Shown: positions 5,529 to 63,314 of the stretch, piece after piece
How the letters are laid out: every line of letters begins with the position of its first letter
Position numbering within the stretch: the stretch's first letter is position 1
Assembly: GCA_039630575.1 (NCBI GenBank)
Contig: JBCNUW010000008.1
Coordinates: forward strand, 1-64,000
Reading direction: 5' to 3'
DNA: 64,000 nucleotides
From: Candidatus Hydrothermales bacterium
GTDB lineage: Bacteria > Hydrothermota > Hydrothermia > Hydrothermales > JAJRUZ01
Translations under genes and position numbers: made by a program
The notes under the pieces: generated by a model
Seen by the model: the letters and a program-made list of their open reading frames with translations, nothing else
Database searches by the model: none
Told to the model about the DNA's origin: nothing

Positions 5529-5560
5529 AAAAGGGTCCCCAGGTTGGGGATATAACCCTT
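5529..5560 (-). terminator. Riboswitch-controlled intrinsic terminator candidate
   Basis: Minus strand AAGGG-TTATA-TCCCC-AACCT-GGGGA-CCCTTTT: GC stem followed by a short U tract, 8 nt before btuB ATG. Confidence 0.55.
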
Positions 5561-5561
5561 A

Positions 5562-5785
5562 GCCCTTAACCCCGGGGCATTTAAAAGGTTGGGTCGGTCT
5601 CCCGACTTAAGACCTTCATGGAAGTGTTTTCCACCTTCCCAGGAAAAAAGCTTTAACCCTTGATGGGTTGAAACCCTTTTTCCCAGTGGCGGGCTATGCC
5701 CTGAAAACACTTCCTTAACCGGTCTATTACGGTCGCGGGGACGGTGTGGGACTTGCACCCACTTCCCGGCACCCAACCCTTTTTA
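5562..5785 (-). ncRNA. Cobalamin (AdoCbl-class) riboswitch
   Basis: Minus strand: GGGAA, P4 GTGGG-TGCAAGT-CCCAC T-loop, CCCCGCGACCGTAA, GCCACTGGGAA...GGGAAGG, B12 box AAGTCGGGAGACCGACC; P1 AAAGGGTTGGG/CCCAACCTTTT; P13 GCCC-CGGGGTTAA-GGGC whose loop complements L5 CCCCG; GC-rich island in AT-rich DNA upstream of btuB. Confidence 0.95.
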
Positions 5786-5790
5786 GTTTA

Positions 5791-5819
5791 ATTATAAAAA
5801 AAAAACTTAAAAATTTCAA
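5791..5819 (-). promoter_or_regulatory. sigma70 promoter TTGAAA-N17-TATAAT for riboswitch-btu operon
   Basis: Near-consensus hexamers ending ~6 nt before riboswitch P1. Confidence 0.7.
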
Positions 5820-10556: not shown

Positions 10557-11294
10557 ATGAGAATTATATTTCTTGGAACAGCAACAGGAATTCCCCAAAG
10601 AAATAACTATCCAAGTTCAATTTATGTTGAAAGTAACGAAAGCAAGATAGTTTTTGATTTTGGTGAAGGTTTGATTAAAAGTCTTGTTGAAAGGAACATA
10701 GATATAAATGATATAGATGCTGTCTTTTTAACTCATTTTCATGTAGATCATGTTGCTGGAATTGTGCCACTTCTTTTTGCTTTCAGATATGAAGGCAATC
10801 CGAGAAAAAAAACTTTTTACATTATAGGACCTAAGGGAACAGTTAATTTTTTGAAAAAATTATTCAGGATCTTTAAAGGTCAGATTGAGCCTAAAGGTTA
10901 TGAGCTTATAATAAAAGAGTTAGGAACTTATAAGTTTATAAATTTCAAAGGGATTAAGATAAAAACTTTTAAAACAAATCACAAGAAAGAAAGTATCGGT
11001 TATATAATCTATTTAGGTAAAAAAAGAATATGTTATACCGGTGATACAGGTTATGATAGAAATTATAAAAAAATTTTGAGGAAAGTTGATATTTTAATAA
11101 CAGAGTGTTCATTACCAATTGATGTGAAAAATCATTTGAATCCTCAAAAGTTATTAAGATTAATAGAAGACATTAAACCTTCTGAAACTTACTTAGTGCA
11201 TATATATCCTGTTATGAGAAAAAATATGATAATTAAGTATTTAAAAAATAAAAAAATTTTCATACCTAAAAAGTATTACGAGATATCAATTTGA
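10557..11294 (+). CDS. MBL-fold hydrolase, ribonuclease Z-like
   Basis: LGTA..IP, DFGEG, THFHVDH (HxHxDH), YTGDT, ECS, VHIYP. Confidence 0.75.
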   Translation: MRIIFLGTATGIPQRNNYPSSIYVESNESKIVFDFGEGLIKSLVERNIDINDIDAVFLTHFHVDHVAGIVPLLFAFRYEGNPRKKTFYIIGPKGTVNFLKKLFRIFKGQIEPKGYELIIKELGTYKFINFKGIKIKTFKTNHKKESIGYIIYLGKKRICYTGDTGYDRNYKKILRKVDILITECSLPIDVKNHLNPQKLLRLIEDIKPSETYLVHIYPVMRKNMIIKYLKNKKIFIPKKYYEISI

Positions 11295-29149: not shown

Positions 29150-30652
29150 TTATATTGCCAGTTTTTTAACTTTCTTTACTACTAAAAAGTAATCAAATAT
29201 AGCCCTTGTTACAAAAATTGCTGTAAAGAATGAAGCTGAGATTCCTAAGGCAAGAACAAGTCCAAATCCCCTTATTGGACCTGTTCCAAACCATATTAAA
29301 ACCAGAGCTGCAATAATTGTAGTTAAGTTAGAATCAAGAATTGTAATTAAAGCTCTTTGATACCCTGTGTCTACGGCTGCCTTAAAGGATTTACCGAGCC
29401 TCAATTCTTCTCTTATTCTTTCAAAGATTAATACATTAGCATCTACTGCCATTCCAATTGTGAGGACAAGCCCTGCAATTCCAGGTAATGTTAAAGTACC
29501 TTTAAACAATGACAAAAGAGCAAGTATTATCACCAAATTAAGTAGAAGAGCAAAATTTGATATGAAACCGCCTACAACATAATAAATTGCCATAAAAATC
29601 ATAACTAAAATTCCTCCTAATATTGCACTCTGAATCCCTCTTCTTATTGAATCTTTTCCTAGTAAAGGGCCAACGGATCTTTCTTCTTCAATCTCAACAG
29701 GAGCCGGTAGAGCTCCTGCTCTTAATATCACTGCTAAATCTCTTGCTTCTTCCATTGTTTCAATACCTGTTATCTGTGCATTTCCTGTGGGTATTTTCTG
29801 GGCTATCCTTGGTGCTGATTGGACTATAGAGTCAAGAACTATTGCAAGCCTTCTTCCAACATTTTCACCTGTAACTCTTGCAAAATCTATAGTACCCTTT
29901 CTATCAAAAGAGAGATTTACTATAGGCGTGTTTTGTAAAATTGGGTCATCTCCCTGATAAACTGAATGTATCGCATCTTTTATATGTTCACCTTTAACAT
30001 CTGGATCTTTATTTAAAAGAAAAAGTGGTCTTAGTTTTTTCCCTTCTACTTCGAAAGATTTTCCAAACATAAAAATTTTATCTGGTGGTAATAAACTTTT
30101 AATATCTTCTTTCCTTAAAATTTTCTTTATACTGTCAAAGTAAATCTCTTCAAAAACAATGTCTCCTCTGTATAGGAATAAAAGGGGTTTTATGGAATTA
30201 TCAATTTTATCAATGATTTTTTTTGTTTTTTCAATATCTTCAACTAAGTGAAAAGTTAAAACAGCAGTTTTTCCTATTATTTCTCTTGCCCTTTCTCTTT
30301 CCATAACTCCCGGAAGTTGAACCATTATCCTATCCTCACCAACTGGTTGAATTACAGGTTCATAAACACCCCATTGATCTATCCTATTTCTAATGATTTC
30401 AAGAACCCTATCTCTTGCATCCTTAACTTTTTCCTTTTCTTTAGCCTCTACTTTCAGGACAAGATACATACCTCCAACCAGATCAAGACCTAACGAAAGT
30501 GCTCTGTTAAGTAGTTTTCTTACTTCCTCTTTAGGTTTCCTTTCTAGTTCTTTTTTAGGCATTGAATAGTATTGAAAAGTTGGTAGTAAGGTTATAAAAG
30601 AAAATAAAATAATTATTAAAATTATTAAATATTTCCATCTTAACGTTTTCAC
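29150..30652 (-). CDS. secD: Protein translocase subunit SecD
   Basis: LGLDLVGG, VQLPG, RAGALPAP, TLPGIAG, VDANVLIFERIREE; start re-called to GTG 30652 (track start TTG 30688 lies in a predicted leader hairpin). Confidence 0.95.
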   Translation of the reverse strand: MKTLRWKYLIILIIILFSFITLLPTFQYYSMPKKELERKPKEEVRKLLNRALSLGLDLVGGMYLVLKVEAKEKEKVKDARDRVLEIIRNRIDQWGVYEPVIQPVGEDRIMVQLPGVMERERAREIIGKTAVLTFHLVEDIEKTKKIIDKIDNSIKPLLFLYRGDIVFEEIYFDSIKKILRKEDIKSLLPPDKIFMFGKSFEVEGKKLRPLFLLNKDPDVKGEHIKDAIHSVYQGDDPILQNTPIVNLSFDRKGTIDFARVTGENVGRRLAIVLDSIVQSAPRIAQKIPTGNAQITGIETMEEARDLAVILRAGALPAPVEIEEERSVGPLLGKDSIRRGIQSAILGGILVMIFMAIYYVVGGFISNFALLLNLVIILALLSLFKGTLTLPGIAGLVLTIGMAVDANVLIFERIREELRLGKSFKAAVDTGYQRALITILDSNLTTIIAALVLIWFGTGPIRGFGLVLALGISASFFTAIFVTRAIFDYFLVVKKVKKLAI

Positions 30653-30705
30653 TTTTAGAGGATATTGAATTTGGGGATTGGAACCCAATGGTTTTTGACA
30701 AATTG

Positions 30706-30735
30706 ATTATAAAGAAAATTTTAAAAATTTATCAA
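30706..30735 (-). promoter_or_regulatory. sigma70 promoter TTGATA-N18-TATAAT for secD operon
   Basis: Near-consensus hexamers on minus strand. Confidence 0.6.
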
Positions 30736-30745
30736 ACTTTTAAAG

Positions 30746-30775
30746 TTGAAAAGGTATAATTGAAATAATTATAAT
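30746..30775 (+). promoter_or_regulatory. sigma70 promoter TTGAAA-N18-TATAAT for por operon
   Basis: Near-consensus hexamers; -10 lies inside perfect palindrome ATAATTATAATTAT (30765-30778). Confidence 0.6.
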
Positions 30776-30839
30776 TATATTGGGGGGGAATTAAAGGTTC
30801 TATTCCCTATTTGGGATATCAAAAAGGAGGGTTTCTGAA

Positions 30840-31388
30840 ATGGTTGAAATTAGATTTCATGGGAGGGGTGGACAAGGAACTGTAGTAGCTTCAAAGGTTA
30901 GTGCAATAGCAGCCTTTAAAAAGGGTTTTTATCCCCTTGCCTTTCCGCAGTTCGGAGTGGAAAGAAGGGGTGCTCCTGTTGCTGCTTTTTTAAGAATTTT
31001 TAACCCAGATGAGAAGCTCTATTTAAGATGTAATATATATAATCCAGACATCATAGTGATTTTAGACCCAACTTTACCTGAAATGATCAATGTTACTGAG
31101 GGATTAAAGGATAATGGGAAAATTATTATTAATTCTGATAGGGAACATAATTTTGGCTCTAACTTTAAAGTTTTTGCTGTAGATGCAACCTCCATCGCAA
31201 TTAAACATAAACTTGGCTCAAAAGCCCAACCAATAGTGAATACAGCAATATTAGGGGCTCTTGCAAAAGTTTCAGGAATTTTTGGTATGGAGGAGTTAAA
31301 GCTTGCAATAGAAGAAGAGATAGAATTTAAAGCTATAGAAAATATAAAAGCTGCTGAAGAGGCTTTTTTATCTTGTAAGGAAATATAA
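30840..31388 (+). CDS. porC: 2-oxoacid:acceptor oxidoreductase gamma subunit
   Basis: EIRFHGRGGQG, FGVERRGAPV, NTAILGA; SD AAGGAGG. Confidence 0.92.
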   Translation: MVEIRFHGRGGQGTVVASKVSAIAAFKKGFYPLAFPQFGVERRGAPVAAFLRIFNPDEKLYLRCNIYNPDIIVILDPTLPEMINVTEGLKDNGKIIINSDREHNFGSNFKVFAVDATSIAIKHKLGSKAQPIVNTAILGALAKVSGIFGMEELKLAIEEEIEFKAIENIKAAEEAFLSCKEI

Positions 31389-34292: not shown

Positions 34293-35219
34293 ATGGCTTT
34301 TGAGTGGGAGGATCTTTTACAGGAAGAGCTTTTAGATCCTGGAATTTTATCCTGTCAAGGGTGTGGTGCAGTGATAGCTTTAAGGCATATTTTAAGAGCA
34401 CTTGGAAAAAATACAGTTGTTACAGTTCCAGCCTGTTGTTGGACTATTATTGATGGGCCCTATCCTTATCATTCCTTAAAAGTTCCTCTTTTTCATACTG
34501 CTTTTGAAACAGCAGCTGCTGCAGCCTGTGGCATAAGGGCAGGCATGAATGCAAGAGGTAAAAGTGATGTGAACGTTTTAGCCTATGCAGGTGATGGAGG
34601 CACCTTTGATATAGGACTTCAGGCACTTTCTGGAGTTGCAGAAAGAAACGAAGATATTATTTATATCTGTTATGATAATGAAGCCTATATGAATACTGGA
34701 ATTCAGAGATCAGGGGCTACACCTTATAAGGCATGGACTGCCACTACACCTTTTGAAAGTCCTAACCAAAGACCAAAGAAAAATATCGTAGAAATAATGA
34801 GAGCTCATAAGATACCTTATATAGCTACAGCAAATGTGGCTTTTCCTCTTGATCTTTATAAAAAAGTAAGAAAGGCAAAAGAAATAAAGGGAACAAGATT
34901 TATACATGTTTTGTGTCCCTGTCCCCCTGGATGGAGAATGGATTCAGAATTAACAGTTAAAGTTGCAAGACTTGCAGTTGAAACAAAGGTTTTTCCACTA
35001 TATGAGATTGAAAATGGCGACTTTTTGAGAATAAATTACATGCCGAAAGGTCTACCTATAAAAGATTATCTTACAATTCAGGGAAGGTTTAGACACTTAA
35101 GAGAGGATGAAATTATAGAAATACAGAAAATAGTAGACTATAGCTTTGATAAATTACTTGAAGAACATAAAAGATCAAATGGAACAATTGATAACATAGA
35201 AAGAGGAATATATAAATAG
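34293..35219 (+). CDS. porB: 2-oxoacid:acceptor oxidoreductase beta subunit (TPP-binding)
   Basis: CQGC, GDGGTFDIG, YDNEAYMNTGIQRS, PCPPGW. Confidence 0.93.
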   Translation: MAFEWEDLLQEELLDPGILSCQGCGAVIALRHILRALGKNTVVTVPACCWTIIDGPYPYHSLKVPLFHTAFETAAAAACGIRAGMNARGKSDVNVLAYAGDGGTFDIGLQALSGVAERNEDIIYICYDNEAYMNTGIQRSGATPYKAWTATTPFESPNQRPKKNIVEIMRAHKIPYIATANVAFPLDLYKKVRKAKEIKGTRFIHVLCPCPPGWRMDSELTVKVARLAVETKVFPLYEIENGDFLRINYMPKGLPIKDYLTIQGRFRHLREDEIIEIQKIVDYSFDKLLEEHKRSNGTIDNIERGIYK

Positions 35220-35249
35220 GTTCAAAGCCTAAAAAAAATTTTTGCTGAA

Positions 35250-36221
35250 ATGGAGGTAATTGAAGAAGGTAAAGTAGAGCTAATTCAAAGGCCTGATGTG
35301 GAAGAATTTAGGAAATTTGTAAGAGAAAAGAAAAGAAGAGGTTTTGTGGACAAAGTAATGGATGAAAAGGAGGCAGTAAAGGAATTTATAAATGACGGTG
35401 ACTATATTGGAGTTGAACTTTATGGCACTGTGAGAGCTCCTCTTTCGGTTGTGCGAGAAATTGCAAGACAAGGGAAGAAAAACTTAAGACTTGCAGGTCA
35501 AGGTCTTCTTGAGATTGATTATCTTTTAGCCTTAGATCTAGTTGAAGCAATGGATGTTACCTATATTGGTTATGAAGTTTTAGGTCTTTCTCCGATTTTT
35601 AGAAGAGCTGCTGAAAGTGGAAAAATTAAAATTGCAGAATGGTCAAATGGAGCAATGTCGTGGAGATTTAAGGCAGCAGCTATGGGTATCCCTTTTATTC
35701 CTGTAAGGAGTATGCTTGGTTCAGATACTTTTAGATACTCATCAGCAAAAGTTGTTAAATGCCCTTTCACAGGATTAAAACTTTGCCTTTTACCAGCCTT
35801 AATACTTGATGTAGGGATAATACATGTTCATAAATGTGATAAGTACGGAAATGCTGTGATTGAGGGTATCTCTGGTTTTGCCTTTGAGATGGCAAGGGCA
35901 TCAAAAAGACTTATAATAAGTACTGAAGAGATAATCTCAACTGATGAGATAAGACGATATCCCGAGAGAACAATAATTCCTTATTTTCTTACTGATGCTG
36001 TTGTTTATGCACCTTTTGGATCCCATCCTGGTGAAATGGTTTACCTTTATGAAAGAGATGAAGAGCATTTAAAAATGTTTCTTGAAATGGCACAAACGGT
36101 AGAGGGTACTAAAAAGTATATGGAAGAATATGTTTTATCTTTAAAGAATCATCAAGAATATCTTGAAAAGATAGGGATGGAAAAACTTTTAAAATTAAAG
36201 TATGAAAAAATGGAGAGGTGA
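35250..36221 (+). CDS. Family I CoA-transferase subunit A (glutaconate CoA-transferase-like)
   Basis: AAAMGIPFIP.RSMLGSD, DVGIIHV, APFGSHP. Confidence 0.85.
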   Translation: MEVIEEGKVELIQRPDVEEFRKFVREKKRRGFVDKVMDEKEAVKEFINDGDYIGVELYGTVRAPLSVVREIARQGKKNLRLAGQGLLEIDYLLALDLVEAMDVTYIGYEVLGLSPIFRRAAESGKIKIAEWSNGAMSWRFKAAAMGIPFIPVRSMLGSDTFRYSSAKVVKCPFTGLKLCLLPALILDVGIIHVHKCDKYGNAVIEGISGFAFEMARASKRLIISTEEIISTDEIRRYPERTIIPYFLTDAVVYAPFGSHPGEMVYLYERDEEHLKMFLEMAQTVEGTKKYMEEYVLSLKNHQEYLEKIGMEKLLKLKYEKMER

Positions 36222-36985: not shown

Positions 36986-37060
36986 CGGGGAGTAGCGCAG
37001 TTCGGTAAGCGCGCCTGGTTCGGGACCAGGAGGACAGGGGTTCAAATCCCCTCTCCCCGA
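36986..37060 (+). tRNA. tRNA-Pro(CGG), CCA not encoded
   Basis: Acceptor CGGGGAG/CTCCCCG+A, anticodon arm CCTGG-TTCGGGA-CCAGG, T arm AGGGG-TTCAAAT-CCCCT. Confidence 0.97.
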
Positions 37061-62720: not shown

Positions 62721-62765
62721 ATTAAAATCAAAAAGGTTCAAACCCTTAAAAAAATTAATTAAAAA

Positions 62766-63314
62766 ATGCCGGATTTAAGGCGCGGAATGGTAATCAATTT
62801 TGAAGGAAAATTTTATGAAGTTATAGATTTTCAGCACATAATGATGGGTAGAGGGCAGGCTCATATAAAAACTAAGCTGAAAAATATAGAGACTGGACAA
62901 GTAATAGAGAAAACTCTAAGGGAAGCTGATCATTTCGAAGAAGTAGAGTTAAGAGAAAGGGAAGCAACTTTTTCTTATACAGATGGTGAAAATTACATTT
63001 TTTATGATTCAGAAAGATATGAGGAGATTGTTTTATCAGCTGAAAAGATAAGGAATCAACTTTTATATTTAAAAGAGGGTCAGGAAGTTAAGGTACAGTT
63101 TATAAATGAAAAGGCTGTTGGAATAGTTTTACCAACTGCTGTTGTTCTTGAGGTTGTGGAAACTGATCCTGGAATAAGAGGTGATACTGCTTCTGGTGGT
63201 TCAAAGCCTGCAAAGTTAGAAACAGGTCTTGTTGTAAAGGTTCCACTTTATATAAAAGAAGGAGAAAAAATTAAGGTTGATACAAGGACAGGAGAATATA
63301 TTGAAAGGGCATGA
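62766..63314 (+). CDS. efp: Elongation factor P (Arg-type tip loop MGRG)
   Basis: DLRRGM, RGDTASGGSKPAKLETG, VPLYI, DTRTGEYIERA. Confidence 0.96.
   Translation: MPDLRRGMVINFEGKFYEVIDFQHIMMGRGQAHIKTKLKNIETGQVIEKTLREADHFEEVELREREATFSYTDGENYIFYDSERYEEIVLSAEKIRNQLLYLKEGQEVKVQFINEKAVGIVLPTAVVLEVVETDPGIRGDTASGGSKPAKLETGLVVKVPLYIKEGEKIKVDTRTGEYIERA

Follow-up and report, generated by a model that had tools for sequence, protein, structure and literature searches.

What are two copies of a hairpin resembling the T arm of transfer RNA (tRNA) doing in the short gap between the divergent genes secD and porC, each in the sense orientation of its own gene? The gap lies in a 64,000-nucleotide (nt) stretch of contig JBCNUW010000008.1 from a Candidatus Hydrothermales bacterium (assembly GCA_039630575.1), which as a whole is called the window below. 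An earlier note on the window had proposed that these hairpins, together with two others that precede a CoA-transferase gene and efp, represent a cis-acting RNA element, and all four copies are indeed there. Our analysis of the surrounding genome and its relatives indicates that they belong to a large set of T-arm mimics located about 20 nt before the start codons of more than 100 mostly housekeeping genes, and that the element is probably an undescribed aid to the start of translation.

A T-loop hairpin repeated before start codons

The four leader copies and the tRNA arm that provides the sequence model of the element are as follows.

30674..30686, minus strand: T-loop hairpin GGGTTCCAATCCC before secD; G51-C63, G52-C62 and G53-C61 close the loop UUCCAAU; no Shine-Dalgarno (SD) sequence
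30795..30807, plus strand: T-loop hairpin AGGTTCTATTCCC before porC; core 30796-30806, third position A.C, unpaired
35218..35230, plus strand: T-loop hairpin before a CoA-transferase subunit A-like gene (ATG at 35250); no SD; operon-internal
62734..62746, plus strand: T-loop hairpin before efp (ATG at 62766); no SD
37038..37050, plus strand: T arm of tRNA-Pro (36986-37060), not a leader copy

Loop-to-start distances of 31, 42, 29 and 29 nt, listed in the earlier note for secD, porC, the CoA-transferase gene and efp, are correct when counted from the first loop base. Counted from the last C of the core, which is our measure unless stated otherwise, they become 22 nt to the GTG of secD, 33 nt to the ATG of porC and 20 nt in each of the other two cases. 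The CoA-transferase hairpin overlaps the porB stop codon TAG (35217-35219), and that of efp lies 16 nt downstream of the preceding stop. Within the window, RGGTTCNANNCCY is matched 5 times, including the tRNA, against 0.29 expected, and none of 100 shuffles reached 5. A fifth copy, at 63198 inside efp, is not followed by a start and appears to be a chance match. Six genomes represent the family of this bacterium, namely that of the window (G000) and five others (G001-G005). The secD hairpin is kept in G001-G005, as is the GTG start of the gene, with the third pair changing from G-C to A-U in G005; the porC hairpin is kept in G001-G004 and the efp hairpin in G001.

The genome of the window (1.89 Mb, 30% G+C, 94.7% complete) contains 207 sites that match GGTTCNANNCC, 44 of which are in tRNA or transfer-messenger RNA genes. 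Among the 163 others, 125 are sense sites located 10-45 nt upstream of an in-frame start, versus 5 antisense; the rest comprise 9 sense and 16 antisense sites inside genes and 8 elsewhere. Control patterns with one loop base altered are nearly absent before starts (1 of 69 sites with A58 changed, 3 of 72 with U54 changed and 1 of 58 with U55 changed). The suspicion that four matches were too many for chance, even for a motif defined after the fact, is thus borne out by the strong strand and position bias in the rest of the genome. With starts picked blind to the motif, the hairpin is present in 112 of 1693 genes. Single changes at positions 52, 53, 54, 55, 58, 61 or 62 give 0-1 copies each, and C56 alone is tolerant (13 sense, 4 antisense). 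Loops of 6 or 8 nt show no enrichment, true ones being absent genome-wide, and no conserved sequence was found beyond the 11-13 nt of the element.

A function scan that covered 68 of the 125 genes identified tuf, rpsL, rpsT, rpsO, rpsU, rpmE, rpmF, infC, dnaK, groES, rpoD, rho, gap, mdh, acpP and dnaN, along with unassigned proteins, and ortholog and protein comparisons added rpsA and rpsF. The set is one of general housekeeping and not a regulon. Its coding G+C content is 33.9%, compared with 30.2% for other genes.

Base pairing argues that the conserved unit is a folded RNA. The third pair, flanking the invariant core, is Watson-Crick in 79 of the 125 copies (A-U 37, G-C 30, U-A 11, C-G 1), compared with 42.4 ± 4.9 in shuffled controls, of which 0 of 5000 reach that number; pairs 4-9 and off-register controls show no excess over shuffles. 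In 32 ortholog pairs with G001 or G005, the third pair has changed on both sides yet been kept in 8 and is identical in 12, a one-sided change is seen in 2, and the position is unpaired in one or both genomes in 10. Variants with A52-U62 occur (6 sense, 2 antisense), and the same variant is found in the tRNA-Ala and tRNA-Phe of G000. The third pair is G-C in 12 of 16 C56 variants versus 31 of the 125 standard copies. Spacers of orthologous leaders are about 42% identical while the core is retained. As in a T-loop, seven loop nucleotides are closed by G53-C61, with U54 and A58 fixed, and this identity of sequence leads us to infer the reverse-Hoogsteen pair U54.A58 and the U-turn. The element, as judged from its sequence, is therefore a hairpin of 2-3 base pairs (bp) that carries a tRNA T-loop and a variable third pair. 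Its predicted stability is small (median -2.2 kcal/mol, with a median predicted P(G53-C61) of 0.84 at 37 °C), and therefore a binding partner probably stabilizes the fold.

The likeness to the tRNA T arm (RF00005) extends to G52-C62, G53-C61, U54, U55, C56, A58, the 7-nt loop and a preference for a pyrimidine at position 60. Unlike the T arm, the element has only 2-3 bp, lacks a D-loop partner and an acceptor stem, carries A instead of G at position 57, and is found in messenger RNA (mRNA) leaders within a fixed range of start codons. Rfam 15 matches in the window are limited to cobalamin riboswitch and tRNA families, and the best hit in 30600-30900 has an E value of 0.25, far below gathering. 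Together with the stem covariation and the strand and position enrichment, this agrees with the proposal of a T-loop-like hairpin in mRNA leaders that matches no Rfam family. T-loops are docking surfaces in T-box Stem I, in RNase P and in L1-stalk modules, and T-boxes also reside in mRNA leaders. Unlike these modules, the element is a single isolated loop with no interdigitated partner, specifier or antiterminator. Evidence against a T-box riboswitch is the lack of an Rfam match, the lack of conservation beyond 13 nt and the functionally unrelated genes. By sequence comparison, the element is a family-wide, start-anchored leader hairpin that is not a member of any family tested.

Start codons, promoters and Shine-Dalgarno sequences

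The hairpin keeps a narrow distance from the start codon. Of the 112 copies, 86 end 17-24 nt before it and only 1 is closer than 17 nt. Among the 82 copies without an SD, 73 fall within 17-24 nt (median 20 nt); the 30 with an SD are positioned further upstream (median 26 nt, p=1.6e-9). The spacer is A-rich, and A occupies position -3 in 59 of the 82 SD-less copies. Extents of -15 to +15 and -20 to +10 are among those reported for E. coli 30S footprints (10.1101/2025.04.04.647229), and the 17-nt floor therefore fits a fold located just outside the initiating subunit.

The placement relative to promoters is looser. The transcription start predicted about 13 nt before both the secD and the porC copies does follow from two divergent sigma-70-like promoters, but this spacing is not general, and a fixed place after the transcription start finds no support in the 10th-90th percentile range of 8-53 nt between -10 box and hairpin, compared with 18-30 nt between hairpin and start. 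Promoter and start distances are uncorrelated (r=-0.03). Promoter-like sites within 70 nt accompany 52 of 110 copies (background 56 of 594) and cluster with 8-17 nt between the -10 box and the hairpin. Conversely, 38 of 53 copies in gaps shorter than 60 nt have no promoter-like site, 21 of the 112 share sequence with the preceding gene or its stop codon, and another 16 lie no more than 10 nt beyond it. The hairpin is tied to the start codon more tightly than to the promoter. Genes and signals around the secD-porC gap are listed below.

29150..30652, minus strand: secD coding sequence, GTG start at 30652; TIGR01129 above cut-off, match from residue 2
30706..30735, minus strand: sigma-70-like promoter of secD, TTGATA-18-TATAAT; consensus match only, 11/12
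30746..30775, plus strand: sigma-70-like promoter of porC, TTGAAA-18-TATAAT; consensus match only, 11/12
30825..30831, plus strand: Shine-Dalgarno sequence AGGAGGG of porC, from sequence; coexists with the hairpin
30840..31388, plus strand: porC, 2-oxoacid:acceptor oxidoreductase gamma subunit; TIGR02175 above cut-off

EF-P also scores above its cut-off, as do SecD and PorC, and the NCBIfam match of CoA-transferase A is below it. Leaderless transcripts look common in this genome, in that 114 training genes have a -10 box ending 5-7 nt upstream of the start (peak at 6 nt), accompanied by a clear -35 signal.

Comparison with a sister family, represented by five genomes including G006, reveals what stands at the same genes where the hairpin is absent. 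It occurs in 0 of 16 G006 orthologs, and SDs are present in 14 of those 16 versus 1 of 16 in G000 (a partial sample); in the family itself, the hairpin is kept in 21 of 22 G001 and 11 of 14 G005 orthologs (also partial samples). A rerun with wider SD words, from which pairs of less than 35% identity or with masked leaders were dropped, gave SDs in 14 of 15 hairpin-gene orthologs versus 74 of 157 others in G006, and in 19 of 21 versus 63 of 109 in a second outgroup genome, G012, where one motif match was left uninspected. SDs have been kept at 6 of 33 hairpin genes versus 61 of 137 others (p=0.005, pooled). For example, all five family genomes with an infC match have a hairpin 21-22 nt before its start and lack an SD, whereas the infC leaders of the five sister-family genomes all show GGAGG and no hairpin. 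The rpsL hairpin is present in 6 of 6 family genomes versus 0 of 4 sister-family genomes, and all 10 WOR-3-type outgroup efp leaders displayed have an SD-like AGGAG and no hairpin. The rpsG gene has an SD in the five genomes with a coupled rpsL-rpsG arrangement; in G005, where it stands behind a gene inserted after rpsL (126 amino acids, L569:2003-2383, minus strand), its leader carries a hairpin, at 22 nt, but no SD. Hairpin and SD also trade places among the family's own orthologs (g871, g597, g1296). Because the hairpin originated in a single family and the corresponding genes of the sister family retain their SDs, clean ancestral controls exist.

The anti-SD is intact. Inside G000, the anticorrelation that had been anticipated between hairpin and SD does not appear. 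SD words precede 30 of the 112 hairpin genes (27%) and 423 of 1581 others; restricting the comparison to independent non-leaderless genes gives 25 of 78 versus 114 of 420 (p=0.41). Nor does the SD go with the weakest stems, as the porC copy had seemed to suggest, since 22 of 30 copies with an SD and 49 of 82 without one have a Watson-Crick third pair (p=0.27). Hairpin and SD stand together at rpsA, rpsU, rpsF, dnaK and porC.

Both families of the order use ATG as the infC start codon (L318:16686; L551-L561). Bacterial infC usually has a non-AUG start that is used for autoregulation. One bin, G010 (L561), contains an additional infC locus, of family-f1 type and with a hairpin, that is probably contamination.

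A candidate initiation element and its rivals

Narrow spacing to the start, together with SDs in the orthologs that lack the hairpin, points to a translation signal, which among the functions offered in the earlier note fits best; tRNA-mimic processing lost ground in the tests given below. On balance, we favor the view that the element is a translation-initiation enhancer that would replace the SD or add to it. The cis-acting mRNA hairpin, with its T-loop fold, would promote initiation at a start codon 17-24 unstructured A/U-rich nucleotides downstream. Its fold would persist immediately beyond the area covered by the initiating 30S subunit, where either the ribosome itself, through its platform or mRNA-exit region, or a separate reader of T-loops would bind it. 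Such a tether could supply the recruitment that the SD gives in related bacteria. Alternatively, it might add to the SD, as at rpsA, rpsU, rpsF, dnaK and porC, with the hairpin pushed further upstream.

Other SD-independent signals are leaderless starts, A/U-rich S1 enhancers and the A-rich context of the Bacteroidota type. Like these and like the SD, the element is genome-wide, anchored to the start, placed on highly used housekeeping genes and followed by an A-rich spacer. Unlike the SD, it is a sequence-specific structured hairpin that needs no anti-SD complementarity and can coexist with an SD. Known ways in which bacteria choose or boost SD-less start sites are unstructured A/U-rich leaders, leaderless mRNAs and coupling. 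If the favored view is true, a structured and sequence-specific signal of 11-13 nt, carried by about 7% of genes, would add a new type of element for recruiting ribosomes. If the hairpin is instead a mark for cleavage or protein binding, it would still represent undescribed genome-wide tRNA mimicry in bacterial mRNA. A literature search, with supplementary motif tables outside its scope, found no description of the element, including of GGTTCGAATCC as an upstream motif in bacteria.

A bolder proposal, tentative and somewhat short of an even chance, is that this would be an additional genome-wide mode of initiation beside the SD-led, leaderless and coupled ones, in which a minimal mimic of the tRNA elbow docks directly on the ribosome (the 30S platform or the 70S L1 stalk) and tethers a start codon about 20 nt away, much like a miniature internal ribosome entry site, the T arm having been copied from tRNA-mRNA co-transcripts. 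Behind many tRNA genes in G000 (on C4, C23 and C56, for example), and in outgroups too, an SD-less protein gene stands just 9-16 nt past the discriminator, a layout like tRNA punctuation in a bacterium. These SD-less genes behind tRNA genes, which have the same T-loop-to-start distance and were already present in outgroups, suggest a possible origin of the element.

Several observations weigh against a role in initiation. Hairpin and SD do not exclude each other inside the genome, and the hairpin is missing from many SD-less genes. The loss of SDs extends across the family (48 versus 88 of 172 pairs for G006, and 39 versus 82 of 130 pairs for G012), and the excess loss at hairpin genes is gone among independent non-leaderless genes (5 of 23 versus 10 of 30, p=0.54, in small overlapping samples). 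A codon-bias proxy for expression does not differ between hairpin genes and others (p=0.63). The third position is unpaired in those 10 of the 32 ortholog pairs, and the 52 of 110 copies with a promoter-like site nearby, many at 8-17 nt, make a role at the 5' end possible. The gene calls and starts come from a simple purpose-made caller (1711 genes) with errors in starts, and the whole pattern reflects one evolutionary origin. No reader protein was found among the named candidates searched, and alignments of bS21, bS1, bS18, uS7, uS11, uS12, uS13 and IF3 reveal no clear family-specific extension. The equal SD rates and the family-wide SD loss therefore suggest that the hairpin marks genes that need a strong start, from which the SD has often, not always, been lost.

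Among possible readers, bS21 (in 61 of 64 class genomes) has 3-4 extra C-terminal residues in the family; bS1 and bS18 are present in 5 of 5 genomes and YqeY in 0 of 5. In 16S helix 23 (near E. coli 680-710; L366-L368), a C-G pair that is otherwise invariant has become A-U in 3 of 3 family genes (G001, G004, G005) versus 0 of 27 other genes of the class. This swap sits among five family-only 16S columns and is a weak lead to a reader.

A dock or modification site for a T-arm enzyme or T-loop protein (TruB, TrmI or TRAM), which would stabilize the message or keep its start open and affect translation only indirectly, is an unlikely reading. It draws on the core, which is the TruB/Pus4 consensus GUUCNANNC in a stem-loop, and on the presence of TruB and TrmI genes, and modification may well occur at the hairpins. 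Among the assays described in PMC13492117, TruB modified 3-bp stem-loops in vitro, about fivefold more slowly than 6-bp ones. The TruB, Pus4 and TRUB1 mRNA targets described there share the loop consensus and the short stem-loop with the element; they are scattered and mostly unmodified (PMC13492117), whereas the element appears selected, is sense-oriented and start-anchored, and the enzyme is not specific to the family. Indeed, TruB and TrmI are equally present in outgroups without the element (5 of 5 genomes overall), U55C and C56 variants stand at orthologous positions, and modification alone leaves the tight start-anchored spacing unexplained. No RNase J that might be blocked was found above cut-off in any of five genomes. 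A YacL-type PIN-TRAM gene is remodelled in the two family genomes examined; its product is only 45% identical within the family versus a 65% median, which counts against this reading.

The remodelled protein, encoded by a radA-linked gene in G000 and G005, has one membrane helix and a TRAM domain and has apparently lost its PIN motifs. The sister-family protein (G006) is canonical, with 334 amino acids. This is another weak lead to a reader. The YacL-type PIN-TRAM loci are as follows.

L593:1459-2130, minus strand
L594:1054-1710, plus strand
L592:724-1728, plus strand

Processing offers a second rival, which we judge improbable. Here the hairpin would be a minimal t-element whose T-loop is read by a tRNA 3'-processing nuclease that cuts about 11 nt downstream, leaving a short-leader, SD-less mRNA with a 5' phosphate and extending the way in which genes behind tRNAs are released. 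Plant mitochondrial t-elements with a GGTTCRANYCC T arm upstream of mRNA 5' regions act in this manner (PMC1920247). As described there, they adopt a tRNA-like fold of about 70 nt with an acceptor stem, their ends are mRNA ends, and they lie up to hundreds of nucleotides from the start (PMC1920247, Forner et al. 2007). The element, unlike these, has no acceptor stem and follows the start codon; acceptor-stem-like pairing is not detectable in its surroundings (score 11.73 versus 11.67 ± 0.13, reached by 54 of 200 partner swaps). Consistent with processing, none of 40 last-in-cluster tRNAs of G000 has an encoded CCA, leaderless genes are numerous (peak at 6 nt after the -10 box), and an SD-less ATG reading frame begins 17-27 nt from the T-loop behind 15 of 40 G000 tRNAs versus 7 of 37 in outgroups (one mis-parse; p=0.08). 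The median distance at tRNA-led genes is nevertheless 23 nt, compared with 20 nt for free SD-less hairpins (p=0.00025). Sense copies in coding sequence are not avoided (9 versus 7.8 ± 2.5, a comparison of low power), and cutting a promoter-proximal leader has no obvious benefit.

A nuclease candidate for such cleavage was also considered.

10557-11294, plus strand: RNase Z-like metallo-beta-lactamase, 245 amino acids; best homolog; lacks the flexible-arm region

The gene is found in 6 of 6 family genomes versus 0 of 5 sister-family genomes at E<=1e-12. The flexible arm of RNase Z is what binds the T-loop. Compared with B. subtilis RNase Z, the protein lacks about 48 residues in this region, and the gene also occurs in families without the expansion (f8, f13, f26, f27 and f28); on these two grounds it was rejected as the specific reader. 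No RNase Z above cut-off (TIGR02651), and none of exosite length, was found, and HARP is above cut-off in 0 of 11 genomes. Within the phylum, the RNase Z-like gene has a patchy distribution, with matches at E<=1e-12 in 60 of 251 genomes. RNase P RNA was identified in all five genomes searched for it.

It is quite improbable that the element operates in transcription, as a B-box-like DNA site or as a nascent-RNA signal for antitermination or promoter escape near the transcription start. The sequence resembles the B box of RNA polymerase III, and the excess of promoter-like sites with their cluster at 8-17 nt would suit such a role. Against it, the position of the hairpin tracks the start codon and the SD and shows no correlation with promoter distance, the covariation of the third pair and the strict loop length point to a fold, and some copies overlap upstream genes. 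Evidence against a palindromic transcription-factor site or a B-box DNA site comes from the 125 sense versus 5 antisense copies, the start-following spacing and a search of five genomes in which no B-block_TFIIIC domain (PF04182) was found. Finally, it is very improbable that the copies are neutral tRNA-gene remnants or belong to a dispersed repeat or mobile element. Although the core is identical to the T arm and some matches in relatives are tRNA genes, nothing outside the 11-13 nt is conserved, single mismatches are nearly absent, and orthologs retain the core amid diverged spacers. The retention of the hairpin in 21 of 22 G001 and 11 of 14 G005 orthologs already contradicts this reading.

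Distribution and further observations

A scan of 251 genomes of the phylum for the pattern with an ATG at 16-28 nt gave 119-202 matches in the 6 family genomes versus 6-57 in the 245 others, and in genomes whose matches are listed many of these are tRNA ends. With a stricter pattern, 50 genomes of mixed phyla gave 0-19 matches versus 69 in G000; this set includes the unpublished G289, and the result stands without it. The expansion is seen in just one family, which consists of uncultured WOR-3 bacteria. The best relatives of EF-P are likewise labelled WOR-3 or Candidatus Hydrothermia (52-62% identity).

The element may spread beyond the family. Non-tRNA copies before an open reading frame occur in at least 2 loci among 117 matched viral loci listed and in at least 10 among 120 matched metagenome loci listed; 2 metagenome loci among the matches listed have two copies and are AT-rich, one with genes closely like those of the family. 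No clear second lineage with the element emerges among the viral and metagenome matches listed.

In the window itself, a cobalamin riboswitch at 5575-5791 (region 5547-5791, minus strand) contains a GGGTTTCAACCC hairpin. A C56-variant copy of the element, GGGTTATATCCCC, lies near 5557, 26 nt upstream of the next start.
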